Assembly: GCA_963731805.1 (NCBI GenBank)
Contig: CAVSWY010000020.1
Coordinates: 709,318 to 773,317 of the forward strand
Reading direction: 5' to 3'
DNA: 64,000 bases
Source: an uncultured Alphaproteobacteria bacterium
GTDB lineage: Bacteria; Pseudomonadota; Alphaproteobacteria; Rhizobiales; Xanthobacteraceae
The notes beneath the pieces are model-generated. The model made no database searches. It was not told where the DNA came from and saw nothing but the letters and a program-made list of their open reading frames with translations. Below are positions 33,154 to 51,743 of this stretch, piece by piece. Position numbers and translations under genes: made by a program. Position 1 is the stretch's first letter. Each line of letters starts with the position of its first letter.

Positions 33154-34674
33154 ATGAGCACAGAACGAAAGCCGGTTGTGTTTGGCGATTTACGCGGCTG
33201 GATAAAGGCGCTCGAAAGCGCCGGCGAATTGCAGCAGATCGACGCCGAGGTCGATTGGAATATCGAGCTCGGCACCATTGCGCGGCTGGCGCAAGGCGCC
33301 GGTACCGGTCCGGCGCTGCTGTTCAATAATATCCGCGATTACGGCGCCAATGCCCGTTGCCGCCAGGTGTTCACCGGCGGCCTGTCGAGCGCGCGCCGCG
33401 TCGCCATGATGCTCGGCCTGCCTCCCGACACCCATGCGCGCGAGCTCGTCAAAATCGGCCGCACGCTGCTCACCGGCAGCGTGCCGCCAAAGCTGGTGAA
33501 GACCGGTCCGGTGAAGGAGAACATCGTCAAGGGCGACGATGTCGATCTCTTGGAGCTCCCGGTGCCGCAATGGAATCGCGCCGACGGCGGCCGCTACATC
33601 ATGACTTACGGCGGCGTCGTCACCAAGGATCCCGATTCCGGCGTGATGAATGTCGGCATCTACCGCGGCATGGTCGGCGGCAAGGATCTGATCCCGATCC
33701 TGATGTGGCGCGCGCAGCATATCGGCCACCACGTCACCGCCTGGCAGCAGAAGGGCCACAAGGAAATGCCGATTGCTGTCGCGATCGGCTGGGAAGATTC
33801 GCTCGGTTTTGTCGCCGGCTCGCCGGTGCCGAAGGGGCTGTGCGAATACGACGTGATCGGCGCCGTGCGCGGCGCGCCGGTCGATCTCGTGCAATGTGAG
33901 ACGGTCGATCTGCAGGTGCCGGCCACGGCCGAGATCGTCATCGAAGGCTATCTCGGCCTCGATCCCGAAAGCTACGTGATGGAAGGCCCGTTTGCCGAAG
34001 TCACCGGCTACATCGCCGGCGACCGTTCGCCGAAACCCGCCATCCGGGTCACTTGCGTCACCCATCGCAACAAGCCGATCTTCCGCGGCACCATCGAAGG
34101 TTCGATGCCCGGCTGCTTTTCCGAGAACGGCGTGTGCTCGTCGATCATGCGCGCGGCGACCGCGTGGAACGTGCTCGATCGCGCCGGCGTGCCCGGCATC
34201 ACCGACGTGTGGTGTCCGCCGGTGCAGGCCGGCGTCAACATCGTGGTGCAGATCAAGCAGAGCTATCGCGGCCAAGCCAAGCAGGTCGCCAATGCGCTAT
34301 GGGGCTCGTCGGCCGGCCACGTCCGCTACAAGCACGTCACCGTGGTCGACGACGACATCGACATCCACGATTACGCCGCGGTCGATTGGGCCATCGCCTA
34401 TCGCGTTAATGCCGGCGAGGACGACATCGTCATCATGCCGGCGACGTTCGGGCTCGGCCTCGATCCATCGACGCGCAAGCGCGATCGCAATACGTCGCTA
34501 TACGGCACCGGCAAGTGGAATCGGGTTCTGATCGATGCCACCATGAATCTCGATTACGACCCCGATCCGGATTTCGGCGGCGCACGTTTCCCACCGATGG
34601 TATGGCCGACGCCCGAAGACATGGCCGCCGTCAAGGCACGCTGGAGCGAGTTGGGGCTGGATAAGAAGAAATAA
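33154..34674 (+). CDS. UbiD family decarboxylase
   Basis: About 506 aa. DLRGWIKALESAGELQQIDAEVDWNIELG is a typical UbiD N-terminus, and the similarity runs the full length. The start is set after the palindromic element. Confidence 0.85.
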   Translation: MSTERKPVVFGDLRGWIKALESAGELQQIDAEVDWNIELGTIARLAQGAGTGPALLFNNIRDYGANARCRQVFTGGLSSARRVAMMLGLPPDTHARELVKIGRTLLTGSVPPKLVKTGPVKENIVKGDDVDLLELPVPQWNRADGGRYIMTYGGVVTKDPDSGVMNVGIYRGMVGGKDLIPILMWRAQHIGHHVTAWQQKGHKEMPIAVAIGWEDSLGFVAGSPVPKGLCEYDVIGAVRGAPVDLVQCETVDLQVPATAEIVIEGYLGLDPESYVMEGPFAEVTGYIAGDRSPKPAIRVTCVTHRNKPIFRGTIEGSMPGCFSENGVCSSIMRAATAWNVLDRAGVPGITDVWCPPVQAGVNIVVQIKQSYRGQAKQVANALWGSSAGHVRYKHVTVVDDDIDIHDYAAVDWAIAYRVNAGEDDIVIMPATFGLGLDPSTRKRDRNTSLYGTGKWNRVLIDATMNLDYDPDPDFGGARFPPMVWPTPEDMAAVKARWSELGLDKKK

Positions 34675-35259
34675 TTACTCCACCGGCAGCAGCGGCCTGC
34701 CTTCCGCAACCTGCATGTCAAATGCCGCGAGCAAAATTGCGGTGCCGGCGTAATTGCCCATCAGCAGAACGAGATCGACCAGCTTGTTCGGCGCGAACAA
34801 AGCTTTCAGCCGCGCGAAGGCTTCGGACGTCACCTTGTGCTTGCCGACCACCTGACGGCCGAATTCGATGATCGCGGCGTCGAGTTCGCTCAAACCTTCC
34901 GTGCTCTTGCGATACTTGATCACGTCAACGACATTCTGCGGAACGCCGACCGTCAGCGCTTCGGGCTCGTGCGCCGCCCATTCGAACCGGCTATCCATCT
35001 CGCGCGCCACCGTGAGGATCGCGATTTCACGCAGTTTGGGATCGAAGCCGGCCTCGTGGCGCAGATAGTGGTTGATGGTCGTATGCGCCTCGACCGTCTT
35101 GGTGCTGTAAAGGTGAAGGCCCGCCGGGCCGCGCAGGCCGACGATGGTTTTGCCCGGCGTATTGGCGCGGTCGTAGGCGCGTTTGCCGACCTCGTCCAAA
35201 TCCTCGCGCTTGCGCAGCGGCAGGCGGCAGCCCGATTGCGGATTGATGTCTGACGGCAT
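34675..35259 (-). CDS. carboxymuconolactone decarboxylase family protein
   Basis: 194 aa with an AhpD-like helical pattern. It is a paralogue-like relative of 846..1418. Confidence 0.75.
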   Translation of the reverse strand: MPSDINPQSGCRLPLRKREDLDEVGKRAYDRANTPGKTIVGLRGPAGLHLYSTKTVEAHTTINHYLRHEAGFDPKLREIAILTVAREMDSRFEWAAHEPEALTVGVPQNVVDVIKYRKSTEGLSELDAAIIEFGRQVVGKHKVTSEAFARLKALFAPNKLVDLVLLMGNYAGTAILLAAFDMQVAEGRPLLPVE

Positions 35260-35387
35260 TTCACTCCCCGATTTCGCTTCAGTGGCGTTGCGGCACGAAC
35301 GGCGAGTTTATCGCGAGCGAATGCGATGTTGCCAGCCTGTTGCGTTTACGGGATCATCCGCCGACAAAAACGGATGAGGGAGGTTGA

Positions 35388-36296
35388 ATGTTCGAGAATT
35401 TCACCCACACGGAAATCAAAACCAGCGGCGCGCGCATCGTCACGGTGCATGGCGGCAAAGGGCCGCCGCTGTTGCTGCTGCACGGCAATCCGTTCAGTCA
35501 TCTGTCGTGGCACAAATTCGCGCCGCGCCTGGCCGAGGAATTCACCGTTGTCGCCACCGATCTGCGCGGTTACGGCGATTCGGAAAAGCCGCCCGGTGGC
35601 GAGGATCATTCCAACTATTCGTTCCGCGCCATGGCACAGGACCAGATCGAGGTGATGGCCGCGTTCGGCCATGAACGCTTCTACGCCGCCGGCCACGATC
35701 GCGGCGCCCGTGTGCTGCACCGCATGTGCCTCGATCATCCAGACAAGGTCGTCCGCGCGGCTATCCTCGACATCGTTCCGCAGCATCATCTGTTCAATAA
35801 TATGACCAAGGCCTGGGCGACGTTCTCATGGCATTGGTTCTTCATGATCCAGCCGTATGATTTTCCCGAGCATCTGATGAGCGCCGATCCGGATTTTTTC
35901 ATCGAGAAGAAGCTCGCCAAGACGGCACAAGGCTTGAGCTTCTTCGATCCGCGGGCGCTTGCCGAATACAAGCGCTATATGCGCAATCCGGCGACCGTCC
36001 ACGCTATGTGCGAGGACTACCGCGCCACCGCCACCATCGACTTCGCTATGGATACCAAGGACTTCGAGGCCGGCCGAAAGATCACCTGTCCTGTGCTGCT
36101 GTTGTGGGGCGCGACCGGCGGCGTCGGCCGCAATCACAAACCGGGTCCGGGCGAAATCTGGCAGCGCTACGCGACCGACATCCGCGGCACCAAGGCGCTG
36201 CCGTGCGGCCATTACCTCTCGGAGGAGGCGCCGGAGGAAACCTACAGGGAACTGAAGGAGTTCTTTACCTCGGGGGAGCCGGCGAAACGCGAATAG
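35388..36296 (+). CDS. haloacetate (fluoroacetate) dehalogenase-like alpha/beta hydrolase
   Basis: LLLLHGNPFSH, nucleophile GHDRGARV, FSWHWFF and MCEDYRA closely follow the fluoroacetate dehalogenase/epoxide hydrolase subfamily. Confidence 0.8.
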   Translation: MFENFTHTEIKTSGARIVTVHGGKGPPLLLLHGNPFSHLSWHKFAPRLAEEFTVVATDLRGYGDSEKPPGGEDHSNYSFRAMAQDQIEVMAAFGHERFYAAGHDRGARVLHRMCLDHPDKVVRAAILDIVPQHHLFNNMTKAWATFSWHWFFMIQPYDFPEHLMSADPDFFIEKKLAKTAQGLSFFDPRALAEYKRYMRNPATVHAMCEDYRATATIDFAMDTKDFEAGRKITCPVLLLWGATGGVGRNHKPGPGEIWQRYATDIRGTKALPCGHYLSEEAPEETYRELKEFFTSGEPAKRE

Positions 36297-36428
36297 CCGT
36301 TATCCGCGGGGGTCCTGCGGGGTGGGACTCTTCGGCACTCGCGCCGATTTGGGACATCTGCTAGTGGGGGCCGGTTCGCGTGGTTGGGCTGGCGGATTCG
36401 CGGGCTGTTGGGCGAAACGGGATTCGCT

Positions 36429-37457
36429 ATGGATGCGCAAACAACCGGTCCGGAACGCGGCATGATCACGCGATTGCGCGCCGGCATGCGCTTCCTCGAA
36501 CGCAAGATTGGTTGGAGCCGGATCGGCTTTGCGCTCAGCCTGACCATCATCGTGGTCGCGATCGTGGTGCTCTATCACATCCTGCGCGACCTCGATGCCG
36601 ACGAGCTTCTGCGCGCGCTGAAAGCAACCGATTGGCGGACGCTTATTATCGCCGGCCTGTTCGTCGCCGCCGGCTATGCGACCTTGACGTTTTACGATCT
36701 GTTCGCGCTGCGCACGATCGGGCGCAACGAGATACCGTATCGCATCGCTGCGATCGCCGGCTTCACCAGCTATGCGATCGGACACAATGTCGGCGCCAGC
36801 GTGTTTTCCGGCGGTGCGGTGCGCTATCGCATCTACTCCGGCTGCGGCCTTTCCGTCATCGAGGTCACCAAAATCTGCTTCGTCGCCGGGCTGACCTTCT
36901 GGCTCGGCAACGCCACGGTGCTTGGCTTGGGCATTCTCGATGCGCCACAGGCCGCTCGCGCGCTCGATCAGCTGCCGCTATCGGCCAACCGCGTCATAGC
37001 GCTGGTCATTCTCGCGCTGTTGGCCGCTTATGTTGCCTGGGTCTGGGTCAAGCCGCGGGTCATCGGACGCGAGGGTTGGGAGGTGCAACTGCCCGGCGGG
37101 CCGCTGACGCTCGTCCAGATCGCCATCGGCATCGTCGATCTCGCCTGCTGCGCGGCCGCCATGTACATGCTGGTGCCGGACGATCCTCACGTCGGCTTCG
37201 TGACAGTGGCCGTGATTTTCGTCGCTGCGACGCTGCTTGGCTTTGCCAGCCACGCGCCCGGCGGTCTCGGCGTATTCGACGCCGCCATGCTGGTGGCGCT
37301 GTGGCAATTCGATAAGGGCGATCTGCTGGCCGGCCTGCTGCTGTTCCGGCTGTTGTATTACATCATTCCGTTCGTGCTCGCGCTCGGCCTGCTGGCGGCC
37401 AGGGAAGCTGTGCTCAGCCGCGCTGCGAGGCGCCTAGGCCATCATCGCCGCGGCTGA
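36429..37457 (+). CDS. YbhN/UPF0104 (lysylphosphatidylglycerol synthase TM-region-like) membrane protein
   Basis: Polytopic membrane protein. The N-terminus WSRIGFALSLTIIVVAIVVLYHILRDLD and the overall pattern resemble the flippase-like domain family. Confidence 0.65.
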   Translation: MDAQTTGPERGMITRLRAGMRFLERKIGWSRIGFALSLTIIVVAIVVLYHILRDLDADELLRALKATDWRTLIIAGLFVAAGYATLTFYDLFALRTIGRNEIPYRIAAIAGFTSYAIGHNVGASVFSGGAVRYRIYSGCGLSVIEVTKICFVAGLTFWLGNATVLGLGILDAPQAARALDQLPLSANRVIALVILALLAAYVAWVWVKPRVIGREGWEVQLPGGPLTLVQIAIGIVDLACCAAAMYMLVPDDPHVGFVTVAVIFVAATLLGFASHAPGGLGVFDAAMLVALWQFDKGDLLAGLLLFRLLYYIIPFVLALGLLAAREAVLSRAARRLGHHRRG

Positions 37458-37516
37458 TGGCCAAAATGGAGTGAGCCTGGCGCAGGTCAGGCCAAATCGG
37501 CAGTCGGGCGAGGGAT

Positions 37517-37547
37517 AAAAAAAGAGGCCGGATTTTCATCCGGCCTC
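37517..37547 (-). terminator. rho-independent terminator downstream of pstS
   Basis: On the minus strand the stem GAGGCCGGA-tgaaaa-TCCGGCCTC is followed by TTTTTTT. It lies 26 nt after the pstS stop. Confidence 0.75.
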
Positions 37548-37572
37548 GACGCAAACTTCAGAGACGTAGTCC

Positions 37573-38605
37573 TTACTTCTCCGCGGTTTTCCAGGCGCCC
37601 GGGATTTCCTTGGCCCAATGCGCCTCGATCTGCTTGACCACGTCGTCAGGCAGCGGGACGTAATCCAGCGCTTTGGCCTGGTCCTGGCCCTTCTTGAGGG
37701 CCCAGTCGAGGAACTTGAGCGCCATATGATTTTGATCCGGCGCGCTGTCCTTGCGCAGCAGCATGTAGGTCGCGGCCGTAATCGGCCAGCTCTTGTCGCC
37801 GGGTTGGTCGGTGAGGATCAGATAGAAATCCTTCACTTTGGTGAAGTCGGCATTCGCCGCCGCGGCCTGGAATGCTTCCATGGTCGGCGACAAACGCTTG
37901 CCGGACTTGTTGACCATGTCGGTGTAGACCAGCTTGTTCTCCATGACGTAGGCGTATTCGACATAGCCGATGGCGCCGTCGACTTGCTGAACGTAGGAAG
38001 CGACGCCGGGATCGCCTTTGCCGCCGACGCCGTTCGGCCAGTTGACCGCGGTGCCTTCGCCGACTTGGCTCTTCCACTCCGGGCTGACCTTCGACAGATA
38101 GTCGGTGAAGTTGAAGGTGGTGCCGGAACCGTCGGATCGATGGACCGTTGTGATCGCCTGATGCGGCAGCGTGACGTTCGGATTGAGCTTTTTGATCGCC
38201 GGGTCGTCCCATTCCTTGATCTTGCCGAGATAGACGTCAGCCAGGGTCGGACCATCGAATACGAGCTCGCCGGGCTTGATGCCCGCGAGGTGCACGACCG
38301 GCGTGATCGAGATGATCACTTGCGGGAACTGCACTAGATTGTTCTTGGCAACGTCGTCCGGCACCAGCGGCATGTCGGTATTGGCGAACAGAACCGTGCC
38401 CGATACGATCTGCTTGATGCCGCCGCCGGAGCCGATGGCGTGGTAATTGATGGTGTCGCCGGTCTCCTTGGCATTAGGTGTCGGCCCACTTGGACGGGAC
38501 CGGGTAAATGGCCGTTCCGCCGGCGCCCGTTAGGCTGGCGGCACGTGCGCTCATGGTGAGCGAAACGGTTGCAGCCACCATGGCTGCAACGAAGTGCGTT
38601 CGCAT
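37573..38605 (-). pseudogene. pstS: phosphate ABC transporter substrate-binding protein PstS, +1 frameshift
   Basis: AGGAGG lies upstream of the ATG at 38605. The signal peptide plus SLTGAGGTAIYPVPSKWADT run into TAA (38476..38474). The PstS sequence continues as (P)NAKETGDTINYHAIGSGGGIKQI... in the next frame. Deleting one A restores ADT-Y-AKETG. Confidence 0.8.
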
Positions 38606-38927
38606 GCAGTACCTCCTGCTATAGTGGGGTCTTGTGGGCTCGATCGCCGGCCCATGACCCGCTGCGCGCATCAGCAGGATTATTTCAATTTGGTGACGGT
38701 CGCGGCGGCAGTTCTCCGGCTGGCTAACCGAAACGAGGACTTCGGCAAGAATTATTAAATGGAATCAAAGCCTTCTGGGCTCAGACGGCACGGCCAAAAA
38801 GTTTTTTCAGACACGCTGGAGCCATGACAGAGTCGGCAGGACGATGATTATCCGCTTACCCGCGTGAAGCTTGCTCCGCTGCGCCGTCCGCCGTATCGCT
38901 CAATGACGCCGCATATGAGCTTGCCCG

Positions 38928-40214
38928 ATGAGCCTGAATGAGGATCGAGGATTGCTTGCAACGAGACCGCACCGCGGGGTGCTGCTCGTCATTGCGGCGA
39001 CGGCGATTGTGTTTGCAGGATTGGCTGCAGCGGGCACGCTCGCCGCGGCCTATGCGATTGCCGGTTTTGCGATCGTCGCTGCGGCGGCTCTGGTGTCGAT
39101 GCGTGCGGTTGAGAAGAACGAGGGACTGGCGCGCCCCGTCGCTATTTTTGAGCGCGGCGACAACGACCTCCTGCGAGCCTTGGTCGCCGGCCTGCCAGAT
39201 CCGGTCGTCGCTCTCGACCGCGACGGTCGGGTGCTGGCGCTCAACGAGCGCGCCCGCGCGCTGGCGCCGGCGTTGCGGCAAGGCGAACCGGTCGCGTTCG
39301 CGCTGCGAATGCCTGAATTGATCGAGGCCATCAGCCGCGCGGCGACGGAGGGCGAAGAGCAGCGCGTTGTCTATTCCGAGCGCGTGCCGATCGACCGTTG
39401 GTTCGAAACCGTCGTGATGCCGGTCAAACGCGCGCCGGACGCAACGCAGTCCGATTTTGTGTTGATCACCTTTCACGACCTCACGCCGCTGCGCCGGGTT
39501 GAGGAGATGCGCGCCGACTTCGTCGCCAATGCCAGCCACGAATTGCGCACGCCGCTTGCCGCGCTGCTCGGGTTCATCGAGACGCTGCAAGGCTCGGCGC
39601 GCGACGACGCCAAGGCGCGACAGCGCTTTCTCGCCATCATGCAGGAGCAGGCGCGCCGCATGGCGCGCTTGATCGACGATCTGTTGTCGCTGTCGCGCAT
39701 CGAGCTCAACGCGCATCGCCGGCCCGATACGCCGGTTGATCTGGTTCCGATTGTCCGTCAGGTCGTCGACGGTCTCGAAACGCTCGCGCGCGACCGCGGC
39801 GTGACCGTTCACATTGACGGGGCGAATGCGCTGTCGGTTCTGGGCGATCATGATGAACTGGTCCGCATCTTCGAGAATCTGATCGAGAACGCGCTCAAAT
39901 ACGGCGCCGCCGGCCGACGGGTCGACATCAAGATCGTGTCCGGATCATCCGCCGATGGCGTGCCGGAAGCGCAAGTGAGCGTGCGCGATTATGGCCCGGG
40001 CATCGCTCCCGAACATCTGCCGCGGCTCACCGAGCGTTTCTATCGCGTGGACGTCACCGAGAGCCGGGCTCAGGGCGGCACCGGACTCGGCCTTGCGCTC
40101 GTTAAACACATCCTCAATCGTCACCGCGGCCGGCTGACCATCGATAGCGCCCCGGGCGAAGGCGCTACTTTCACCATCCATCTGCCCACCGCGGCGCCGG
40201 CGCATTCGAGATAA
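38928..40214 (+). CDS. phoR: phosphate regulon sensor histidine kinase PhoR
   Basis: Two N-terminal TM segments, a PAS-like region, the H-box FVANASHELRTPL, and the N/G boxes (ENALKY, GGTGLGLALVKH). Confidence 0.9.
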   Translation: MSLNEDRGLLATRPHRGVLLVIAATAIVFAGLAAAGTLAAAYAIAGFAIVAAAALVSMRAVEKNEGLARPVAIFERGDNDLLRALVAGLPDPVVALDRDGRVLALNERARALAPALRQGEPVAFALRMPELIEAISRAATEGEEQRVVYSERVPIDRWFETVVMPVKRAPDATQSDFVLITFHDLTPLRRVEEMRADFVANASHELRTPLAALLGFIETLQGSARDDAKARQRFLAIMQEQARRMARLIDDLLSLSRIELNAHRRPDTPVDLVPIVRQVVDGLETLARDRGVTVHIDGANALSVLGDHDELVRIFENLIENALKYGAAGRRVDIKIVSGSSADGVPEAQVSVRDYGPGIAPEHLPRLTERFYRVDVTESRAQGGTGLGLALVKHILNRHRGRLTIDSAPGEGATFTIHLPTAAPAHSR

Positions 40215-40239
40215 TATCTTTGTTATTCAAGGCCTTGCA

Positions 40240-40257
40240 CTGTCATCTAATTGTCAT
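40240..40257 (+). promoter_or_regulatory. Pho box (CTGTCAT-CTAA-TTGTCAT) upstream of pstC
   Basis: Two 7-bp direct repeats with a 4-bp spacer match the PhoB-binding consensus CTGTCAT-N4-CTGTCAT. A -10-like TAGAAC lies 10 nt downstream. Confidence 0.6.
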
Positions 40258-40433
40258 GCGCCGCTCATAGAACATTGATGTGCCAAACCTAAGCCATCCG
40301 CGCTGCGCCGAGTGCCCTTATCTCAAAGGTCGGCGGTCCGAGTGTCGTGCATCGGCTGATCGATCATCTGACCGGCCGCATCAGCTCCTTCTTACAGGAG
40401 TGCGGTCGGTGTTCCCCCAAGCGGAGGCGTTCC

Positions 40434-41798
40434 GTGGTTGACGTTGCATTACCGCAGGGATCGGCCATTTCGTCCGCGGGCGCGGTACGCGCCAAGGCGC
40501 TCGATCGGCTGCGTATCGGCGATGTCATTTTCCGCCATCTCACCCGTTCTGCGGCCTTCGGCGTGCTGCTGCTGCTCAGTGGCGTCATCATCTCGCTCCT
40601 TTGGGGCTCGCTGCCGGCTTTTAGAAAGTTTGGCTTCGGCTTCATCGTCAGCGAGCAGTGGAACCCGGTCACTGACGATTTCGGCGGGTTGGCGGCGATC
40701 TACGGCACGATTGTCACCTCGTTCATCGCGATGCTGATTGCGGTCCCGGTTGGCTTGTTGATTGCCTTTTTTCTCACCGAATTGTGCCCGCCATGGCTGC
40801 GCCGACCGATTGGCATCGCCATCGAGCTGCTCGCCGGCATCCCAAGCATCATCTACGGCATCTGGGGGCTTTTCATTTTCGCCCCGATCCTCCAAGCGAC
40901 GCTGCAGCCGTTCCTGATCGACACGCTCGGCGACGTGCCCGGGATCGGCTTACTATTCGCCGGTCCGCCCTTCGGCATCGGCATGCTCACCGGCGGACTC
41001 ATCCTCGCCATCATGGTGCTGCCTTTCGTCGCGTCGATCTCCCGCGACGTATTCGAGGCGGTGCCGGTCGTGCTCAAAGAGGCGGCCTATGGCGTCGGCT
41101 GCACGACCATCGCGGTGCCGGTCGGCTTGATGATCGCGTTCTTCCTGACCGAGCTGTGCCCGCCAATTCTGCGCCGACCCATCGGTATCGCCATCGAGCT
41201 GCTGGCCGGGATTCCGAGCATCATTTATGGTATCTGGGGCTTGTTCGTATTCGCCCCGTTCCTCCAGCAAACGCTACAGCCGTTTCTGATCGACACGCTC
41301 GGCGACGTGCCGGGCATCGGATTGCTGTTCGCTGGGCCGCCCTATGGCATTGGCGTGCTCACTTCGGGCTTGATCCTCGCGATCATGGTGCTGCCGTTTG
41401 TCACCGCGATCACGCGCGACGTCTTCGAAGCGGTGCCGGGCGTGCTCAAGGAGGCCGCCTATGGTGTCGGCTGCACGACTTGGGAAGTGGTGCGCAACGT
41501 CGTGCTGCCCTTTGCCAGAGTAGGCGTTATCGGTGGGATCATGCTCGCGTTGGGTCGGGCGCTAGGCGAGACCATGGCGGTCACCTTCGTCATCGGCAAC
41601 GCGCATCGCATCGCAGCATCGGTGATTGCGCCCGGCACCACCATCTCCGCCACCATCGCCAATGAGTTCACCGAGGCGGTCGGCGACCTCTACACCTCCG
41701 CTCTGATCGAGCTCGGCTTGATCCTGTTCGTCATCACCTTCATCGTACTCGCCATCGCGCGTTACTTGCTGATGCGCATCGAGCGCCGGATCGGATAA
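40434..41798 (+). CDS. pstC: phosphate ABC transporter permease PstC carrying an internal tandem duplication
   Basis: PstC-like throughout, including the EAA-loop region [21 protein letters not shown]. The GTG at 40434 has GGAGG 6 nt upstream; the track ORF begins at 40347. A 124-aa block occurs twice in tandem. Confidence 0.85.
40737..41480 (+). repeat. in-frame tandem duplication, 2 x 372 bp, within pstC
   Basis: Copy 1 is 40737..41108 and copy 2 is 41109..41480. By my manual codon-by-codon count there are about 69 differences in 372 nt and 12 in 124 aa. Confidence 0.9.
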
Positions 41799-41802
41799 CG
41801 CC

Positions 41803-42645
41803 ATGGACGTTCGTTACGCCGTTCGTCGACACCGCAACACCGCAGCGACGGCGATGGCAATGGCCGCTACGGCGCTCGGCCTGGGCTGGCTGGCGCTCAT
41901 CCTCGGCTCGCTGCTGTGGCACGGCTTCAGCGGTTTGTCTGTCGCGGTGTTCACGCAAATGACGCCGCCGCCCGGCTCGGCCGGCGGGTTGCTCAACCCG
42001 ATCTTCGGCAGCCTCGTTCTTACGATCATCGCTGTGGTGATCGGCACGCCGATCGGCATCCTGGCCGGCACCTACCTGGCCGAATACGGCCGCTACGATA
42101 AGCTGAGCAGCGTGGTGCGCTTCATCAACGATATTCTGCTCAGCGCGCCATCCATCGTCGTCGGCCTGTTTATCTACGAAATCATGGTCGCGCCGATGGG
42201 GCATTTCTCCGGCTGGGCCGGCGGTGTTGCGCTCGCGGTGCTCGTCATCCCGGTGGTCGTGCGTACCACCGAAGACATGCTGACGCTGGTGCCGAATGCA
42301 TTGCGCGAGGCGGCGACCTCGATCGGCCTGCCGCGCTCGCTGGCGATTAGGCGCATCGGCTATCGCGCGGCGCGCGCCGGCATGGTGACGGGAGTGCTGC
42401 TGGCGGTCGCCCGGATCAGCGGCGAAACCGCGCCGCTGCTGTTCACCTCGCTCAACAACCAATTCTGGAGTACCGATCTCAACCAGCCGGTCTCCAGCCT
42501 GCCGGTTGTTATCTTCCAGTTCGCGCTAAGCCCCTATCACGACTGGCAGGCACTGGCCTGGACTGGCGCCCTTATCATCACGCTCGCGGTGCTTGCCCTG
42601 AGCATCAGCGCGCGCGCCCTCGTTCCATCGGGAAAACAGTCATGA
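41803..42645 (+). CDS. pstA: phosphate ABC transporter permease PstA
   Basis: 280 aa, six TM segments, and an EAA-like [19 protein letters not shown] loop. It follows pstC. Confidence 0.9.
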
Positions 42646-43463
42646 GCATGAGCGTAGCCTCCGTTAGCGTTCCGCCCGTCAGCCACGCCCCGATCGACCG
42701 GACTGGTCTGGCGGAGAAGATCACCATCCACGATCTCAATTTCTTTTACGGCCAGACAAAGGCGCTGAATTCGATCAGCCTGCCGCTCTACCAGAATAAG
42801 GTCACCGCCTTCATCGGTCCGTCGGGCTGCGGCAAATCGACCTTATTGCGGGTGCTCAACCGGATGTACGACCTTTATCCGCGTCAACATGCCACCGGCG
42901 AAGTGTTGTTCGACGGCGTCAACATCCTTTCGCCGAAGCAGGACCTCAATCTGCTGCGCGCGCGCGTCGGGATGGTGTTTCAGAAGCCGACGCCGTTTCC
43001 GATGTCGATCTATGAGAACATCGCTTTCGGCATTAGGCTGTATGAGCGGTTGCCGAAATCCGAGCTCGACGGGCGCGTGGAGACCTCGCTGCGGCGTGCG
43101 GCCCTATGGGAAGAAGTGAAAGACAAGCTCAATGCTAACGGCCAGAGCCTGTCCGGCGGCCAGCAGCAGCGCCTGTGCATCGCCCGCACCGTCGCCGTGC
43201 GCCCCGAGGTGATCCTGTTCGATGAACCCTGCTCGGCGCTCGATCCGATTTCGACCGCCAAGATCGAGGAGCTGATCGACGAGCTGACGGACGATTATAC
43301 GATCGCGATCGTAACCCACAATATGCAACAGGCCGCGCGCGTGTCGGAATTCACCGCTTTCATGTATCTCGGCGAACTGATCGAATACGATTCGACCAGT
43401 AAAATGTTCACCGCGCCGCACGACCAGCGGACGCAGGACTATATCACCGGCCGCTTCGGCTGA
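42642..43463 (+). CDS. pstB: phosphate ABC transporter ATP-binding protein PstB
   Basis: Walker [10 protein letters not shown], signature LSGGQQQRL and Walker B ILFDEP. Its start overlaps the pstA stop. Confidence 0.95.
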
Positions 43464-43491
43464 CCGCCGACCAGGACGCAGGTAAAAGACA

Positions 43492-44226
43492 ATGACCGAA
43501 ATCACCACGACACGAGTCGATCACACCGCCAAGGCGTTCGACACCGACCTGCAGGAAATCACCCGCAAGGTCGCCGAAATGGGCGGTCTTGCCGAGCGGC
43601 AGATCGCCGATTCCGTGCAGGCGCTGGTCGACCGCGACGTCGAGCTCGGCGAGCGCGTCATCGCCATGGATCCAGCGATCGACACGCTGCAGCGCGAGGT
43701 CGAGGAGAAAGCCATCCTCACTATCGCCCGGCGACAGCCAATGGCGATCGACCTGCGGGAATGTGTGAGCGCCATGCGGGTGGCCAATGATCTGGAGCGG
43801 ATCGGCGACCATGCCAAGCATATCGGCAAGCGCGTCGTCGCGCTCGACGGCGACTTCTATCCGCAAAAACTGATCCGCGGCGTCGAGCATATGTCGGCGC
43901 TGGTCCTGGCACAGCTCAAGCAGGTGCTCGATTCCTATGCCAGCCGCGACTTGACGGCGGCGCTCGCGGTGTGGAACGGCGACGAAGAAGTCGATGCGAT
44001 GTGCACGTCGCTGTTCCGCGAGCTCCTCACTTATATGATGGAGGATCCGCGCAACATCACCTTCTGCATGCATCTGATGTTCTGCGCCAAGGATATCGAA
44101 CGCATCGGCGACCATGCCACCAATATCGCCGAAACCGTCTATTACATGATTGAAGGCCGTCCGATTACCGACCAGCGTCCAAAGGGTGACACCACGAGTT
44201 TCCCGGCAGGTTTGCTGCAGAAATAG
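43492..44226 (+). CDS. phoU: phosphate signaling complex protein PhoU
   Basis: Two PhoU repeats with the conserved E(R/D)IGD motifs (DLERIGDHAKHI, DIERIGDHATNI). Confidence 0.9.
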   Translation: MTEITTTRVDHTAKAFDTDLQEITRKVAEMGGLAERQIADSVQALVDRDVELGERVIAMDPAIDTLQREVEEKAILTIARRQPMAIDLRECVSAMRVANDLERIGDHAKHIGKRVVALDGDFYPQKLIRGVEHMSALVLAQLKQVLDSYASRDLTAALAVWNGDEEVDAMCTSLFRELLTYMMEDPRNITFCMHLMFCAKDIERIGDHATNIAETVYYMIEGRPITDQRPKGDTTSFPAGLLQK

Positions 44227-44236
44227 GAGCCCCTGA

Positions 44237-44992
44237 ATGGGTGCCAATATTCTGATCGTGGAAGACGAGGAGCCGCTAACTACCCTGCTGCGCTATAACC
44301 TCGAAGCCGAGGGCTATGAGGTGGATGCCGTCGCCCGGGGCGACGATGCCGACACCCGGCTCAAGGAAACCGCCCCCGATCTTGTCGTGCTCGACTGGAT
44401 GCTGCCCGGCCTCTCGGGCATCGAACTGTGCCGCCGCTTGCGGGCGCGGCCGCAGACGCAATCGCTGCCGATCATCATGCTGACCGCGCGCGGCGAGGAA
44501 AGCGAGCGCGTCCGCGGGCTCGCCACCGGCGCCGACGACTACATCGTCAAGCCGTTCTCAGTGCCGGAACTGCTGGCGCGGGTGCGTGCGCTCCTTCGTC
44601 GCGCCAGCCCCGAGCGGGTCGCCATGGTGCTCTCGATCGGCGACCTCGAGCTTGACCGCGAGAAAAAGCGGGTGTCGCGCGCGAACCGTCCGGTCGATCT
44701 CGGGCCGACGGAATTCCGCCTGCTCGAGTTTCTGATGGAGCGTCCAGGTCGGGTGTTCTCGCGCGAGCAATTGCTCGACGGCGTCTGGGGCAGCGACGTC
44801 TATATCGACGAGCGCACCGTCGACGTCCATGTCGGGCGCCTGCGCAAAGCGCTCAACCGCGGCCACGCCACCGATCCGATCCGTACCGTGCGCGGCGCCG
44901 GTTACTCGCTCGACGATCGCTTCGGTAAGGACGAACGCGTCGTCAAGGACGATCGCGTTGTCAAAGACGACCGCCTCGGCAAGGTCGGCTGA
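44237..44992 (+). CDS. phoB: phosphate regulon response regulator PhoB with repeat-containing C-terminal tail
   Basis: Receiver domain (ILIVEDE, DLVVLDWMLPG) plus an OmpR-type wHTH (TVDVHVGRLRKAL, RTVRGAGYSL). An extra charged tail of about 20 aa follows. Confidence 0.9.
   Translation: MGANILIVEDEEPLTTLLRYNLEAEGYEVDAVARGDDADTRLKETAPDLVVLDWMLPGLSGIELCRRLRARPQTQSLPIIMLTARGEESERVRGLATGADDYIVKPFSVPELLARVRALLRRASPERVAMVLSIGDLELDREKKRVSRANRPVDLGPTEFRLLEFLMERPGRVFSREQLLDGVWGSDVYIDERTVDVHVGRLRKALNRGHATDPIRTVRGAGYSLDDRFGKDERVVKDDRVVKDDRLGKVG
44912..44983 (+). repeat. 18-bp tandem repeat x 4 at the 3' end of phoB
   Basis: The units are GACGATCGCTTCGGTAAG, GACGAACGCGTCGTCAAG, GACGATCGCGTTGTCAAA and GACGACCGCCTCGGCAAG. 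They encode DDRFGK-DERVVK-DDRVVK-DDRLGK. Confidence 0.85.
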
Positions 44993-45011
44993 AAACAAAT
45001 CGCTGACGGTT

Positions 45012-45509
45012 TTACCGCTGCGGGCGCTTGTCCCGGCGACGGTCGCTGGCCGGCTGATAGGCCACCCGCGAATGATAGGCGCAATAGGGCACGCCCGCGA
45101 GCGTACTGCCGCCGCAGAAGAAGAACTCTGTACTGCCGGGATCCCCGACCGGCCAGCGGCAGGTCTGTTCGTTGAGTTCGAGGAGCGTGCGGCGCTGGCC
45201 GATCGGGATGATGTTGTCGATCAGTTCCGGCTCGGCTTCCGCCTCCATCTCGTAGGCATGCGCCAGCGCGGTATTGCCGCGGATCGCGGCGCGTCCGATG
45301 CGCAACATATGCGACGGCGCGCGCGCCTTGCGCGGGCGCGGCGAGGCGCTCGACGTGCTCTTGGCGCGACCGGACAGACCGAGGCGATGCACCTTGCCGA
45401 TCACGGCATTGCGCGTAATGCCGCCAAGCTCGGCGGCGATCTGGCTCGCGGAAAGGCCGTCCGACCAAAGTTTTTTGAGCAGCTCGACCCGCTCGTCCGT
45501 CCACGACAT
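45012..45509 (-). CDS. gcrA: cell-cycle transcriptional regulator GcrA
   Basis: MSWTDERVELLKKLWSDGLSASQIAAELGGITRNAVIGKVHRLGL is the canonical GcrA N-terminus. AGGAGG lies upstream of the ATG at 45509. Confidence 0.9.
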   Translation of the reverse strand: MSWTDERVELLKKLWSDGLSASQIAAELGGITRNAVIGKVHRLGLSGRAKSTSSASPRPRKARAPSHMLRIGRAAIRGNTALAHAYEMEAEAEPELIDNIIPIGQRRTLLELNEQTCRWPVGDPGSTEFFFCGGSTLAGVPYCAYHSRVAYQPASDRRRDKRPQR

Positions 45510-45789
45510 GCCCAAACCTCCTTGCATGTGCGCGAAGCTCCTTTTCCAGATCGCTATTTGTGAGAATCCCCCACCGAGCCAGGAAGCGTGTCTCGCCGCC
45601 CAGCACGTACTCAGAACGCCAACGCTTTAGAAGACTGTCCGCCGCACGATATGTCGTACTTGACAATCAAAAGGCTACAATATGGCCGGAGTCTGACGCA
45701 AGAGTTCGTCTAAAATGAGTCCACACATTCCTGCTTTGGTGTGGATGAAGTGGGTACAAACGGAGTTCGCGACGCCTAATTATCCTGTG

Positions 45790-45817
45790 TTGACAGTGCT
45801 GCGCGCCGAAATAGAAT
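45790..45817 (+). promoter_or_regulatory. sigma-70-like promoter (TTGACA-16 nt-TAGAAT) upstream of argD
   Basis: Near-consensus hexamers at 45790..45795 and 45812..45817 with a 16-nt spacer. Confidence 0.45.
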
Positions 45818-45914
45818 GGTGTTCGGTGCCGCCCGGAAGAGGCGGCACATTTCGTTTGAACTGCGCCATTGCTGCTGCGCAGCGTTGACGGGCTCAGCCG
45901 TGACATCGCATCTG

Positions 45915-47104
45915 ATGCCGACATTCGCGCGTGTACACCTCGCCTTCGAGCGGGGCGAAGGCGTATGGCTGCACGCCACCAACGGCGAGCGCTATCTCGA
46001 CTTTACCTCGGGTGTCGCCGTCAACGCGCTGGGCCATGCGCATCCGCATCTGGTCGCGGCGCTGGCTGAGCAATCGCAGAAACTCTGGCACGTCTCCAAC
46101 CTCTTCGAAATTCCGGAAGCCGAGCAGGCGGCGGCGCGGCTGTGTGCCGCAAGCTTCGCCGACGTCGTGTTCTTCTGTAATTCGGGCGCCGAGGCGGTGG
46201 AAGGCGCGATCAAGTGCGCGCGCAAATATCAGTCGGCAAACGGCGCGCCGGAGCGCTATCGCATCATCACCTTCGAAGGCGCCTTTCACGGCCGGACGTT
46301 GGCGACGCTCGCCGCCGGCGGCCAGAAGAAGTATCTCGATGGTTTCGGGCCGCCTGTCGAGGGCTTCGATCAGGTTCCATTCGGCGATCTCGATGCTGTC
46401 AAGCGCGCAATCGGCGACGAGACCGCCGCCATCATGATCGAGCCGGTAATGGGAGAAGGCGGTGTGCGCGCCGTCGAGCCGTCGTTCCTGCGCGCGCTCC
46501 GCGAGCTGTGCGACGAGCACGGCCTCCTCCTGGTGTTCGACGAGGTCCAAAGCGGCATGGGCCGCACCGGCGAGCTGTTCGCCTATCAACGCACCGGGGT
46601 CACGCCCGACGTGATGCCGCTCGCCAAGGCGCTCGGCGGCGGCTTTCCGGTCGGCGCTGTGCTGGCGACCGAGGCGGCAGCCAAGGGCATGACCGCCGGA
46701 ACCCATGGCTCGACTTTTGGCGGCAACCCGCTGGCGATGAGTGCGGTCAATGCCACACTCGACGTCATGTTGGCACCCGGCTTCTTCGAGCACGTGCAGC
46801 ACGTCGCGCTTCTGTTCAAGCAGCGGCTGGCGGAGATCAAGGATCGCTATCCGGCGCTGGTCGCCGAAGTGCGCGGCGAAGGGCTCCTCGTCGGCTTGCG
46901 CATGCTGGTTCCGGCGGGCGAGCTCGTCGACGCGACGCGCGCCGAACACATGCTCACGGTGGGCGCCGGCGATAATGTCGTCCGCTTGCTGCCGCCGCTC
47001 ATCGTCAGCGAGCAGGAGTTGGCCGAAGGCGTGGCTCGGCTCGACCGCGCTTTGGCGCGGCTCGCCCGCGCGCACGGCCACGGCGGCAAAGCGGAGAGCG
47101 CCGG

Positions 47105-47108
<4 letters not shown>
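45915..47108 (+). CDS. argD: acetylornithine aminotransferase (class III aminotransferase)
   Basis: [40 protein letters not shown] and [11 protein letters not shown]. It is followed by argF. The start codon is uncertain, possibly further upstream. Confidence 0.85.
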
Positions 47109-48034
<926 letters not shown>

Positions 48035-48089
48035 CCGACGGATCGGCTGAGGCCTCCCAATCGCGCCGCCGTCACCTATATTGGGCGCG

Positions 48090-49115
48090 ATGACCAATCC
48101 CGATTTCGCCAGCCCGGTTCGTGCACCCGCTCAGACGGGGCTCGACGACACCATCCTGCCGTTCGCGGTCAAGGCGCTTGATCTGCGCGGCCGCATCGTG
48201 AGGCTCGGGCCGGCGGTCGACACCATTTTGGGGAGCCACGATTATCCGACGCCGGTGGCGAAATTGCTCGGCGAGGCGATCGTGCTCACGGTGATGCTCG
48301 GCTCGGCGCTCAAGATCGACGGCCGCTTCATCCTGCAGACCCAGAGCGACGGACCGGTGCGTATGGTGGTGGTGGATTTCACCTCGCCCGGCAAAGTCCG
48401 GGCCTGCGCCCGCTTCGATGCGGCGCGCGTCGATCAGGCGATTGCCAATGGCGCAGCGGCGCCAGGTCAATTGCTCGGCCGCGGCCACCTGGCGATGACC
48501 ATCGACCAAGGCCCGGAGATGAGCCGCTACCAGGGCTTGGTGGCGCTCGAAGGCGGCGATCTCGAAGCGGCCGCGCACGAATATTTTACGCGCTCGGAGC
48601 AAATTCCGACGCGGGTACGTCTCGCCGTCGCCGAGGAGTTTCGCGCCGGTGAAAACGGCGCGCGCCGTCACTGGCGCGCCGGCGGCATCATGCTGCAATT
48701 CCTGCCGGCTTCGCCGGAGCGCGCGCGGCAGGCCGATCTACATCCGGGCGACGCGCCGCCCGGCGCCGCGCTGCATATGCTGCCGGAGGACGAAGCCTGG
48801 GTCGAGGGCCGCGCGCTGATCGATACGGTCGACGATCTCGAACTCCTCGATCCCGATCTGTCGAGCGAGCGGTTGGCTTACCGGCTGTTTCATGAACGCG
48901 GCGTGCATGTCTACCGCGACGCGCCGGTCAATGCGCAGTGCTCGTGCTCGCGCCACAACGTCGAGAACATGCTCAAGAGTTTCACGCAGGCGGATCGCGA
49001 CGACATGGTCGAAAACGGCCGCATCACCGTGACCTGCGAATTCTGCAGCTCGACTTATGTGTTCGCGCCGGATGACGTGGCGGCGCAAAGGTCGGCGTCG
49101 GAGCTTAAGGCCTAA
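48090..49115 (+). CDS. hslO: Hsp33 family redox-regulated chaperone
   Basis: The C-terminal Zn-binding CSCSRHNV...CEFCSSTY (CxC...CxxC) and the overall Hsp33 pattern are present. Confidence 0.85.
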   Translation: MTNPDFASPVRAPAQTGLDDTILPFAVKALDLRGRIVRLGPAVDTILGSHDYPTPVAKLLGEAIVLTVMLGSALKIDGRFILQTQSDGPVRMVVVDFTSPGKVRACARFDAARVDQAIANGAAAPGQLLGRGHLAMTIDQGPEMSRYQGLVALEGGDLEAAAHEYFTRSEQIPTRVRLAVAEEFRAGENGARRHWRAGGIMLQFLPASPERARQADLHPGDAPPGAALHMLPEDEAWVEGRALIDTVDDLELLDPDLSSERLAYRLFHERGVHVYRDAPVNAQCSCSRHNVENMLKSFTQADRDDMVENGRITVTCEFCSSTYVFAPDDVAAQRSASELKA

Positions 49116-49127
49116 GACTTTTGCTAA

Positions 49128-49520
49128 CTAATTGATCGTGCGCTTGTTCTCGACGCTGTCGAGCGAAAAGGCCGGTACATCGATGTCGAAATGCTCGCCG
49201 CTTCCGCTCACCATGCCGTAACTGCCGGTCATGAAGCCCGACGGCGTCTGCAGCGGCACGCCGCTGGTATATTCGAACAACTCGCCTGCCTTGAGCACCG
49301 GCTCCTCGCCAACCACGCCGGCGCCGCGCACTTCCTGGCGGCGGCCATTGGCGTCGGTGATGCGCCAGTGCCGGGTTTTCAACTGCACCGTTTCGGTGCC
49401 GTTGTTGGTGATTGAGATGGTGTAGGCCCAGAAAAAATAGTTGTTCTCCGGCGACGACCGATCGGCGACGAAACGTGGCATCACCACGACTTCGATATTG
49501 CGGGTTACCGCGCGATACAT
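49128..49520 (-). CDS. apaG: ApaG (DUF525) protein
   Basis: 130 aa. FFWAYTISITNNG...RHWRITDANG...GVVGEEPVL...FEYTSG is the canonical ApaG pattern. Confidence 0.9.
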   Translation of the reverse strand: MYRAVTRNIEVVVMPRFVADRSSPENNYFFWAYTISITNNGTETVQLKTRHWRITDANGRRQEVRGAGVVGEEPVLKAGELFEYTSGVPLQTPSGFMTGSYGMVSGSGEHFDIDVPAFSLDSVENKRTIN

Positions 49521-49758
49521 GACGCCGTTCTTGCTCCCCCATAACAGGCCCGGCTGTTGCCGGCTTCATCGTATGCCGCGCCAGTGCCGCATCCGAGTTC
49601 CACGCATAAGTGAACAATTCCCGACAAAAGTGAATAATGCCATGACCATGAGTTGCAATAACCATGCGGGCGCGCTTACTCAAGCCATACTGCCGGGCTA
49701 GATTTGAAATACGGCGAAGGCCCCGCCGCCGCGGCCAACGGAAGCGATCGTCAAGCAG

Positions 49759-50979
49759 ATGTCCGCCAAGCAATCGTTTACCGGAGAAACACCGGTCACG
49801 GCGTGGCCGATGGCCGCGTCGCTCCCGGCCGCCGGCGAGCGCGATTTGCGACTCGATCTGTTCCGCGGCCTCGCGCTGTGGCTGATTTTCCTCGACCACA
49901 TTCCGCAAAACGTCGTCAACTGGTTCACCATCCGCAATTACGGCTTTTCCGACGCCACCGAGATCTTCATCTTCATTTCCGGCTACACCGCGGCCTTCGT
50001 CTATGGCCGCGCCATGCGGGAACGCGGCATCATCATTGCGAGCGCCCGCGTGTTGCGGCGCGCCTGGCAGATTTACGTCGCCCACATCTTTCTGTTCACC
50101 ATTTTTATGGCCGAGATCGCCTATGTCGCGGCGACGTTCGACAATCCGCTTTACGCCGAGGAAATGAACATCCTGGATTTCCTCAAACAACCGGACATCA
50201 CGATCTTTCAGGCGCTGCTGTTGAAGTTCAAGCCGGTCAACATGGACGTGTTGCCGCTTTATATCGTTTTGCTGGTGTTGTTCCCGCCGATGCTGTGGCT
50301 GTTGTTGCGACAGCCCGCCTTCGCACTTGCCGGCTCCGCCTTGGTCTATGTATTGGCCTGGAATTTCGATTGGAATCTGCCGGCCTATCCGAACGGCGTC
50401 TGGTTCTTCAATCCGTTCGCATGGCAATTGCTGTTCGTATTCGGCGCCTGGTGTGCGCTGGGCGGCGCGCAGCGCCTGTCCGGCCTGCTGCGTTCGCGCG
50501 TCGTGCTCACCATCGCGGTGGCTTATCTCCTGTTCGCTTTCGCCATCACCTTAACCTGGTATATCGAACCGCTTGGGCGCTTCGTGCCGGTCTGGCTGAG
50601 CGCCTGGATGTATCCGATCGACAAGACAAATCTCGACGTGCTGCGTTTCGCCCATTTCCTGGCGCTGGCGGCGGTCACCGTCCGCTTCGTGCCGCGCGAT
50701 TGGCCGGCGTTGAAATCGCCTTATTTGGCCCCCGCCATCCGCTGCGGGCAGCATTCGCTGGAAATCTTCTGCCTGGGCGTTTTCCTGGCCTTTGCCGCAC
50801 AATTCATCATTAGCGAATGGTCGGGGGGTCCGTTAATTCAGATCATAATCAGCTTGGTCGGCATATTGATCATGATTGCCACGGCGAACCTGATATCGTG
50901 GTACAAGCGTATGGAAGGCCGGGGCGCGACGACGCGGGTTAAACCGCCGGATGCAGACCTCGCCGGGGGAGACGCATGA
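49759..50979 (+). CDS. OpgC-like membrane acyltransferase (acyltransferase_3 superfamily)
   Basis: RLDLFRGLALWLIFLDHIP...FSDATEIFIFISGY is the OpgC N-terminal signature. About 10 TM segments. Confidence 0.75.
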   Translation: MSAKQSFTGETPVTAWPMAASLPAAGERDLRLDLFRGLALWLIFLDHIPQNVVNWFTIRNYGFSDATEIFIFISGYTAAFVYGRAMRERGIIIASARVLRRAWQIYVAHIFLFTIFMAEIAYVAATFDNPLYAEEMNILDFLKQPDITIFQALLLKFKPVNMDVLPLYIVLLVLFPPMLWLLLRQPAFALAGSALVYVLAWNFDWNLPAYPNGVWFFNPFAWQLLFVFGAWCALGGAQRLSGLLRSRVVLTIAVAYLLFAFAITLTWYIEPLGRFVPVWLSAWMYPIDKTNLDVLRFAHFLALAAVTVRFVPRDWPALKSPYLAPAIRCGQHSLEIFCLGVFLAFAAQFIISEWSGGPLIQIIISLVGILIMIATANLISWYKRMEGRGATTRVKPPDADLAGGDA

Positions 50980-51743
50980 AACTTGCCGCCGCCGTCCTGG
51001 CGACCATTGCGTTGGTTATCGTCGGTCCGAGCGGCGCCGCGCGCGCCGCACCGCCCGAACAATGTGATGCGCCGCAATCGCTGGTCGATGGCGATGCCGA
51101 CCTCAGCCGCGTGATGGAGGCATTCAAGGCCAACCATCGCCTCTCCATTACCGTGATCGGCTCGGGCTCGTCGGGGCTTCCCGGTCCCGAAGGCGTGCAT
51201 GCGGCCTATCCGGCGCGGCTTGAGGCCGCCCTCAAACAAGCCATGCCCGGCGTCGACATCAGGGTCGCCGCGCATGTCCAGTCGAAGGAAACCACCGCCA
51301 CCATGGTCGCAGGCCTCGACCAAATCCTGGCCGCTGACAAGCCGACGCTGGTGATTTGGCAGGCCGGCACGGTTGATGCCCTCGACGGCGTCGAGCCGGA
51401 GGATTTCCGCAACAGCCTCAGCGACGGGGTCGCCAAGATCCAGGCTGCGGGCGCCGATGTCATTCTGATGAATATGCAGTACAGCCCGCGCACGGCATCG
51501 ATGCTCGACGTTTCGGTCTATGCCGACGTCATGCGGGCGATCGCGGAGCAGCAGGGTGCGTTGTTGTTTGATCGCCTGGCGATCATGCAATACTGGAACG
51601 ACGCCGGCACCTTCGACCTCTATACCGCAACAAAGAAATATGATATGGCGCGTCGTGTTCACGACTGCATTGGCTGGGCCTTGGCGTCGCAGATCGTAGC
51701 TGCTGCTCATCTCGACGCCACGAGAATGCAAACGACGCAATGA
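50976..51743 (+). CDS. SGNH/GDSL-type hydrolase family protein (exported)
   Basis: Signal peptide, and block I-like VIGSGSSG. The start overlaps the opgC-like stop (ATGA). Confidence 0.65.
   Translation: MKLAAAVLATIALVIVGPSGAARAAPPEQCDAPQSLVDGDADLSRVMEAFKANHRLSITVIGSGSSGLPGPEGVHAAYPARLEAALKQAMPGVDIRVAAHVQSKETTATMVAGLDQILAADKPTLVIWQAGTVDALDGVEPEDFRNSLSDGVAKIQAAGADVILMNMQYSPRTASMLDVSVYADVMRAIAEQQGALLFDRLAIMQYWNDAGTFDLYTATKKYDMARRVHDCIGWALASQIVAAAHLDATRMQTTQ

Follow-up and report, generated by a model that had tools for sequence, protein, structure and literature searches.

A diverged in-frame repeat in pstC of an uncultured Xanthobacteraceae bacterium, probably formed by an out-of-register join of two pst-locus alleles

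The ABC-importer permease gene pstC of an uncultured Alphaproteobacteria bacterium (Xanthobacteraceae) contains a block of 124 codons twice in a row. This repeat is almost certainly the product of one non-homologous join between two diverged alleles of the pst locus, and not of an intragenic duplication. The gene lies at 40434-41798 on the plus strand of a 64,000-nucleotide stretch of contig CAVSWY010000020.1 (assembly GCA_963731805.1), which was analysed as a whole and is called the window here. The window follows one type of locus (B-type) from the phoR stop codon through the end of the 124-codon block, and it then continues in a second type (A-type) from the start of the same block at 41109. 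The chimeric ancestry of the gene, its recency, its uniqueness, and the loss of pstS are all demonstrated by comparison with related sequences. The repeat is either very recent or artificial, it is unique to one contig, and it is tied to the pstS loss.

The two blocks (40737-41108 and 41109-41480) are 372 bp each, abut without gaps, and are in the same reading frame. They have mismatches at 69 of 372 nucleotides (81.5% identity), divided 13, 5, and 51 over codon positions 1, 2, and 3, while 12 of the 124 encoded amino acids are unlike. By the Nei-Gojobori method (NG86) the nonsynonymous divergence (dN) between the copies is 0.070 and the synonymous divergence (dS) is 0.852, giving a dN/dS ratio (omega) of about 0.08. 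Tandem Repeats Finder independently reports an array with period 372, 2.0 copies, and a score of 1026, and it finds no other long-period tandem repeat in the window. The open reading frame (ORF) is uninterrupted across the repeat and encodes 454 amino acids; its likely start is the GTG codon at 40434, with GGAGG seven bases ahead (40423-40427). Copy 1 (40737-41108) encodes transmembrane helices (TM) 3 and 4, preceded by the second half of TM2 and followed by the first half of the EAA loop. Copy 2 (41109-41480) receives merely the second half of TM2, and the EAA motif of copy 1 is severed after GCTT. The 3' part of the gene (41481-41798) supplies the second half of the EAA motif, TM5, and TM6. 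The repeat had been described in the initial annotation of this stretch, which was right about its coordinates and counts, about the junction being in frame, and about the EAA motif being split; the comparison of dN and dS between the copies that it recommended gave the low omega reported above.

Contigs from the same species have a normal pstC. Comparison contigs were found by exact-protein look-ups with PstA, PhoR, and other proteins of the window, and they belong to ENA assemblies including ERZ25039519, ERZ25039501, and ERZ25039593. Contig_60641 of ERZ25039519 is collinear with window positions 11581-64000 (more than 52 kb) at 99.92-100% identity and virtually without gaps, and the pst locus is the sole structural difference between the two. 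Three conspecific metagenome contigs from other samples (L081, L082, and L083) define the A-type locus. The window is 99.97% identical to L081 over 33973-40213 and matches it again over 41109-52645. Between these regions the window has 895 bp (40214-41108) where all three contigs carry 3,064 bp, comprising a frameshifted remnant of a major facilitator superfamily (MFS) gene, an intact plus-strand pstS (342 amino acids, 405 bits for NF008171), and the first 303 bp of a pstC of 330 amino acids. In this pstC the block occurs once and pstS stands ahead of the gene, so that the A-type order is pstS (pseudogene, minus strand), phoR, MFS remnant, pstS, pstC, pstA, pstB, phoU, phoB. The gene phoR (38928-40214, plus strand) is the left flank common to both locus types and is the same as in the conspecific contigs through 40213, the second base of its stop codon. 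To the right, pstA, pstB, phoU, and phoB (41803-44992, plus strand) are all intact and identical to the conspecific genes. Copy 2 shows no difference from the single-copy gene of L081, L082, and L083 (100% identity), and its best match among 80 species loci reaches 84.1%. Because of its identity to the conspecific gene, copy 2 is native, together with everything downstream, and the identity of this whole part to the three contigs is 99.97-100%. Six further exact-protein look-ups (with PhoR, the ORFs at 21581 and 58751, PstB, the hydrolase at 35388, and GcrA) returned only A-type contigs and three short ones (L088, L089, and L092) that end short of the pst locus. The MFS remnant, located between phoR and pstS at 6243-7611 of L081, consists of two overlapping ORFs that score slightly under the threshold for PF07690, and it was found solely in the A-type locus of this species.

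The 895-bp B-type segment (40214-41108) consists of the phoR-pstC intergenic region, the 5' end of pstC, and copy 1. Its identity is 76% to the 5' part of pstC in L081, 88.8-90.9% to L001, and 85-89% to L002, the last two being metagenome-assembled genomes (MAGs) of sister species. The B-type arrangement is that of L001 and L002, in which a Pho-box region and then a single-copy pstC come immediately after phoR. Nucleotide identity to L001 is 89.7% for the N-terminal flank of the repeat, 90.9% for copy 1 (99.2% at the amino acid level), 82.5% for copy 2, and 86.3% for the C-terminal flank. In a neighbour-joining tree of the 372-nucleotide block from 83 sequences, copy 1 clusters with L001 and L002 with a bootstrap value of 0.995, and the two copies are monophyletic in none of the 200 bootstrap replicates. 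The dS value is 0.44 between copy 1 and L001, 0.85 between the two copies, and 0.70-0.82 between copy 2 and any relative. Since the dS between the copies exceeds that between copy 1 and L001, the split between the copies predates the split between the species. Compared with L001 the B-type segment has a clean ORF whose differences are nearly all synonymous (dN 0.004, dS 0.44), which shows that it is well-supported sequence. The initial annotation had mentioned import of one copy from a diverged pstC as an alternative. The data favour this idea with a correction, as the alignment to close relatives that was also proposed there identifies copy 2 as the native one; copy 1 is the incoming one, and the first 303 bp of the gene and its Pho-box promoter region came with it.

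The intergenic part of the B-type segment has features that are shared with L001. A Pho-box-like direct repeat, CTGTCATCTAATTGTCAT (40240-40257, plus strand), was detected by pattern match and is conserved in L001. It is a probable PhoB-dependent promoter for pstC, judged by the Pho-box consensus of E. coli. Directly before the pstC start, 60 nucleotides (40328-40387) are 100% identical to L001, versus about 90% around them, and this stretch is a candidate for a leader or regulatory element conserved among B-type loci. An Rfam scan of 38600-41600 gave no match.

The low omega had been read as a sign that both copies evolved under purifying selection, but it carries no information on selection on a duplicated protein. 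Ordinary pairs of orthologues have omega values of 0.008-0.16 for this block, and the value for the two copies falls inside this range. The low dN/dS therefore reflects ordinary divergence of two separately evolved single-copy orthologues. As copy 2 has not yet departed from the single-copy allele, selection has had no time to act on the duplicated protein.

The repeat was not found in any relative. Among 8,000 scored proteins, the best 120 have lengths of 309-377 amino acids and none of them is duplicated, the block is present once in each of 80 loci from GTDB species representatives, and none of the 150 best representatives out of 1.84 billion repeats it. Two kinds of long protein are present among these 150. 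The first kind has a second match to the block that is 20-30% identical and lies about 350 amino acids downstream, which is consistent with PstC-PstA fusions. The second kind has unrelated insertions in the TM3-TM4 loop. A search with a 71-amino-acid junction peptide was not comprehensive, as only 167 short candidates were scored; the few matches covering 77-83% of the query are spurious extensions and lack the junction. Exact-match scans of JGI metagenome contigs found neither a 30-mer spanning the junction nor a 25-mer from the B-type intergenic region that is conserved with L001.

The structure has a single novel junction, and it is blunt. It lies at 41108-41109 on the plus strand and reads ...GGCTGCACGACC|ATCGCGGTGCCG.... 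On its left the B-type segment begins with the last base of the phoR stop codon, which is TAA in the window and TAG in L081. This boundary coincides with the end of homology between the A-type and B-type loci and is therefore not necessarily a recombination junction. Two possible causes for the position of the novel junction were considered and rejected. Similarity between the two locus types does not drop there, since it is unbroken over both block boundaries, and neither microhomology nor an internal repeat accounts for the 372-bp offset; a shared 7-mer, GTCGGCT, is present near both ends, not at the junction. An in-frame outcome has a prior chance of one in three.

The replacement removed the only intact pstS of the locus. 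A divergent pstS (37573-38671, minus strand) has a 1-bp insertion at ...GACACCTAATGCC..., the corresponding sequence in relatives being GATACCT-ACGCC. The frameshift had been pointed out in the initial annotation, and it is common to the window, L081, and L083, the last of which has one more indel. It is a real, species-level pseudogene mutation rather than a read error. Intact minus-strand pstS genes are present in the relatives L009, L002, and L024. The decay of this gene was presumably tolerated as the plus-strand pstS took over. In the window the plus-strand gene is deleted, and the pseudogene is the sole pstS remaining. The locus therefore encodes two of the cognate partners of PstC, PstA and PstB, and lacks an intact pstS. 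Inactivating context, with loss of pstA or pstB as the example, had been named earlier as a sign of a decaying gene, and such a context exists in spirit, as the only intact pstS is lost.

The 454-amino-acid protein is still recognized as PstC, but it does not have the canonical form. It scores 571 bits for NCBIfam NF008435 (cut-off 502), 438 bits for TIGR02138 (cut-off 196), and 47 bits for PF00528 (BPD_transp_1; cut-off 26.4), so that it lies above the curated cut-offs for a PstC equivalog, with NF008435 and TIGR02138 each matched in two stretches. A canonical PstC matches its profile in a single pass, has about 300-340 amino acids and six TM helices, and has both termini in the cytoplasm, and the chimera does not fit this description. 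The intact EAA coupling motif (EAA-x3-G-x9-I-x-LP) is present once, formed by copy 2 and the C-terminal flank. Kyte-Doolittle hydropathy gives nine hydrophobic segments, versus six in a normal PstC. The junction forms a new one (residues 217-246), in which a stretch of about 20 residues is above the TM threshold. Compared with a normal PstC, the predicted protein thus has three additions: an extra TM3-TM4 hairpin, half of an EAA motif that is cut short, and the new junction segment. If the junction segment is in the membrane, the intact EAA loop and TM5-TM6 would be inverted and docking of PstB would be impossible. With the junction segment in the cytoplasm, an 8-TM topology is formally possible. 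An 8-TM PstC had been thought conceivable, but the idea hinges on the half-helix remaining cytoplasmic and is weak, as the junction creates a hydrophobic segment that passes the TM threshold. AlphaFold2 gave a mean pLDDT of 42 and a pTM of 0.25 for the 454-amino-acid protein from a shallow alignment of 74 sequences, and a control with the 330-amino-acid single-copy protein and the same homologues was likewise poor (pLDDT 50, pTM 0.29); because the alignment is too shallow, nothing about folding follows from these models. The Pst importer of the window genotype is most likely inactive, a loss of function that we infer from the gene content and the predicted topology.

The join has an even chance of having arisen in vivo, by a process of the type known as homology-facilitated illegitimate recombination (HFIR). 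In this scenario an A-type cell would receive a fragment of DNA from a strain or sister lineage with the B-type locus. At the left end, homologous recombination would occur in or upstream of phoR, and it would be traceless if the donor was conspecific. An illegitimate join within pstC, with an offset of 372 bp, would close the broken right end, and the net outcome would be an insertion of 895 bp together with a deletion of 3,064 bp. Several observations argue for an in-vivo join. A kilobase-scale insertion with a kilobase-scale deletion and one homologous end is a published outcome of HFIR (PMC3240628). The pstS-pstC 5' region looks like a hot spot of allele replacement. In this region the cassette has 69-81% nucleotide identity between sister species, versus 86-93% for its flanks, which suggests that the A-type cassette was itself gained by an earlier replacement. 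Finally, the B-type segment is of high quality, and there is no similar anomaly in the 52 kb that were compared.

Several findings weigh against an in-vivo origin. Comparison of the junction with L081, which represents the recipient, and with L001, which stands in for the donor, shows no shared base and hence no microhomology. No independent assembly with the junction was found, and the identical 454-amino-acid sequence is on record at NCBI and ENA from one contig only, of 1,222,978 bp. No donor identical to the B-type segment was found, the best match being about 97% identical in amino acids, and records contain no B-type strain of the same species. In the best B-type cluster, P0121 (46 members), the 15 members listed are at most 96.9% identical over the 225-amino-acid N-terminal part. 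The chimeric product is likely deleterious, yet the genotype would have to dominate its sample. The contig is a metagenome consensus from Oxford Nanopore Technologies (ONT) reads with residual errors, and two alleles side by side are also the output expected when an assembler mis-joins a mixture of strains.

Such a mis-join is a serious rival whose probability falls somewhat below one half. In this case A-type and B-type populations would have been collapsed into one path by a long-read assembler (probably metaFlye, judged by the contig names), producing a heterotype false duplication, and no cell would carry the gene. The assembler would have taken a short B-type bubble branch and re-entered the A-type path 372 bp early, and polishing would be unable to remove an insertion of this size. 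A graph assembler that projects node positions over a length difference of 2.2 kb could re-enter the A-type path a few hundred bases early. The two copies are indeed two alleles side by side, with a blunt join at a featureless point, and the left boundary lies exactly at the end of A/B homology, which is the expected site of a bubble node. The comparison took in at least four assemblies of the same species, 80 species loci, and proteins in the billions, and just one contig has the structure; the outcome also looks biologically damaging. B-type loci are common in soil metagenomes, where one member of the 46-member cluster is found on 53 contigs. Assemblies are known to contain false duplications that stem from diverged haplotypes (PMC9516828).

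The window also has systematic base errors. Relative to the conspecific contigs it has private substitutions at 27369, 27908, 31901, 49279, 49616, and 51895, each of which changes the G of a GANTC site (the CcrM motif) to A, and at 12536-12537 there is a swap of neighbouring bases, GA and AG, that is also at a GAATC. These changes have the signature of methylation-related nanopore basecalling errors rather than that of mutation. One of them creates a premature stop codon (27367-27369) in the essential gene pheT (26428-28854, minus strand) that is found in the window only. This stop codon was considered as a sign of a decaying genome and rejected, as it is a GANTC basecalling error. The initial annotation had ruled out an assembly artefact on the ground that the copies differ. 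That argument does not hold, because diverged alleles side by side are the signature of a heterotype false duplication and the contig is an ONT consensus.

Other evidence speaks against a mis-join. No verified assembler step is known to us that yields such a join. The offset of 372 bp is far below read length, so spanning reads would normally constrain the assembly. The B-type part is cleanly polished and the flanks are purely A-type, which would need a particular balance of coverage. In addition, a second anomaly is lacking in the 52 kb compared. An in-vivo join and a mis-join both need a B-type population related to the species of the window.

The remaining explanations are much less probable. 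It would be surprising if the join were real and the chimera still worked, and we consider this very unlikely; the junction would have to be cytoplasmic, the surplus TM4/TM3 pair would form an accessory hairpin outside the core, which the natural insertion of P0405 suggests to be feasible, and PstS would have to be encoded elsewhere. It is at least as hard to believe that copy 1 and its upstream region came from a paralogous pst locus in the same genome by ectopic recombination or gene conversion, and we give this slightly less credence still. Many Alphaproteobacteria have more than one pst operon, and the inspection covered 64 kb of the genome. However, in L001 and L002 the B-type intergenic region starts right at the end of phoR, which makes it an allele of the same locus and not a paralogue. 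Its divergence from L001 (about 10%) also matches that of flanking core genes, and there is no second copy within the 64-kb window.

A tandem duplication that arose in frame long ago, and whose copies purifying selection has maintained in a functional 8-TM PstC, is the least probable explanation and can be practically dismissed, as the low omega, the intact ORF, a formally possible topology with a cytoplasmic junction segment, and the existence of a PstC variant (P0405, 420 amino acids) whose hairpin of about 80 amino acids shows that the TM3-TM4 loop can take extra helices are outweighed by the identity of copy 2 to the single-copy gene within flanks that are 99.97% identical (hence an event younger than the divergence of the contigs), by copies that are not sister sequences and whose dS is twice that of copy 1 to another species, by the lack of any relative with the block twice, and by the loss of pstS in the same event. 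The copies are thus not each other's closest relatives, their divergence did not follow a duplication, and relatives do not share the structure.

These results call for caution in the interpretation of repeats within genes. A diverged in-frame repeat with low dN/dS mimics an old, selected duplication, and an out-of-register join of alleles yields the same pattern at once. Comparison with a near-identical genome settles the choice between duplication and allele join. If the join is real, it would be a natural case of one-sided illegitimate recombination between locus variants in an uncultured soil member of the Xanthobacteraceae, at a hot spot of allele exchange, and the strain would probably be Pst-null. 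If it is an artefact, it would represent a class of error in long-read metagenomes that inflates the number of novel domain architectures in catalogues of MAG proteins. If the chimera works, it would be a snapshot of an ABC-importer permease gaining helices by out-of-register recombination of alleles.

Two shorter repeats are also present in the window. PhoB has a C-terminal tail of 18 amino acids (44912-44984) with three DDRxxK-like hexapeptides, encoded by an 18-bp repeat in 4.1 copies. The tail had been noted before. The nearest species, L001, L005, and L009, keep it (PhoB of 251 amino acids), while other relatives lack it (233 amino acids). It is a stable lineage marker rather than an artefact of local slippage. 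At 7206-7482 there is a tandem array with a 24-nucleotide period and about ten copies, also scored at periods of 48 and 72. In one frame, which is a putative reading frame, its consensus unit encodes a glycine-rich octapeptide similar to TGPGGGLS.

Scars of the HFIR type and heterotype false duplications are both already known phenomena. HFIR has been described in Streptococcus pneumoniae, Acinetobacter baylyi, Pseudomonas stutzeri, and E. coli conjugation, and most of its junctions have 3-10 bp of microhomology (PMC3240628). The window resembles these cases in having one homologous and one illegitimate end, with a gain of 895 bp coupled to a loss of 3,064 bp. Insertion of donor DNA and deletion of resident DNA thus occur together with one end in shared homology, and an alignment of strains shows a variable segment in which an insertion is coupled with a deletion. 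Unlike most HFIR junctions, the junction of the window lacks microhomology of 3-10 bp, judged with L001 as a proxy for the donor. The donor also differs, since it is not unrelated DNA but a homologous sequence that is 19-24% diverged and was joined out of register, giving an in-frame duplication of the overlap. The event in the window is known from sequence alone.

False heterotype duplications have been described for assemblies of diploid vertebrates, where they mostly coincide with gaps or halved read depth (Ko et al. 2022, PMC9516828). They are similar to the window in that diverged alleles of one locus are placed next to each other in one assembled sequence, mimic a gene gain or an internal duplication, and are specific to one assembly. 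In contrast to those cases, the window belongs to a gap-free contig of a bacterial metagenome.

The chimera shares with canonical PstC of the PstSCAB system its equivalog scores, the pstC-pstA-pstB-phoU-phoB operon, a Pho-box-like promoter, one intact EAA motif, and TM5-TM6. It differs in its length (454 versus about 330 amino acids), in matching the profile in two stretches, in having nine hydrophobic segments instead of six and an extra EAA half-motif, and in the lack of an intact pstS at the locus. Natural PstC variants with extra sequence are also known. P0405, P0459, P0440, and P0480 have insertions in the periplasmic TM3-TM4 loop, which is where the surplus hairpin of the window would formally fit. 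The insertion of P0405 apparently consists of two hydrophobic helices split by RRVAQG. In contrast to the window, the insertions of these variants do not duplicate PstC sequence, as they show no self-similarity, and they have no second EAA fragment. These variants are representatives of clusters at 50% identity and may be established lineages.

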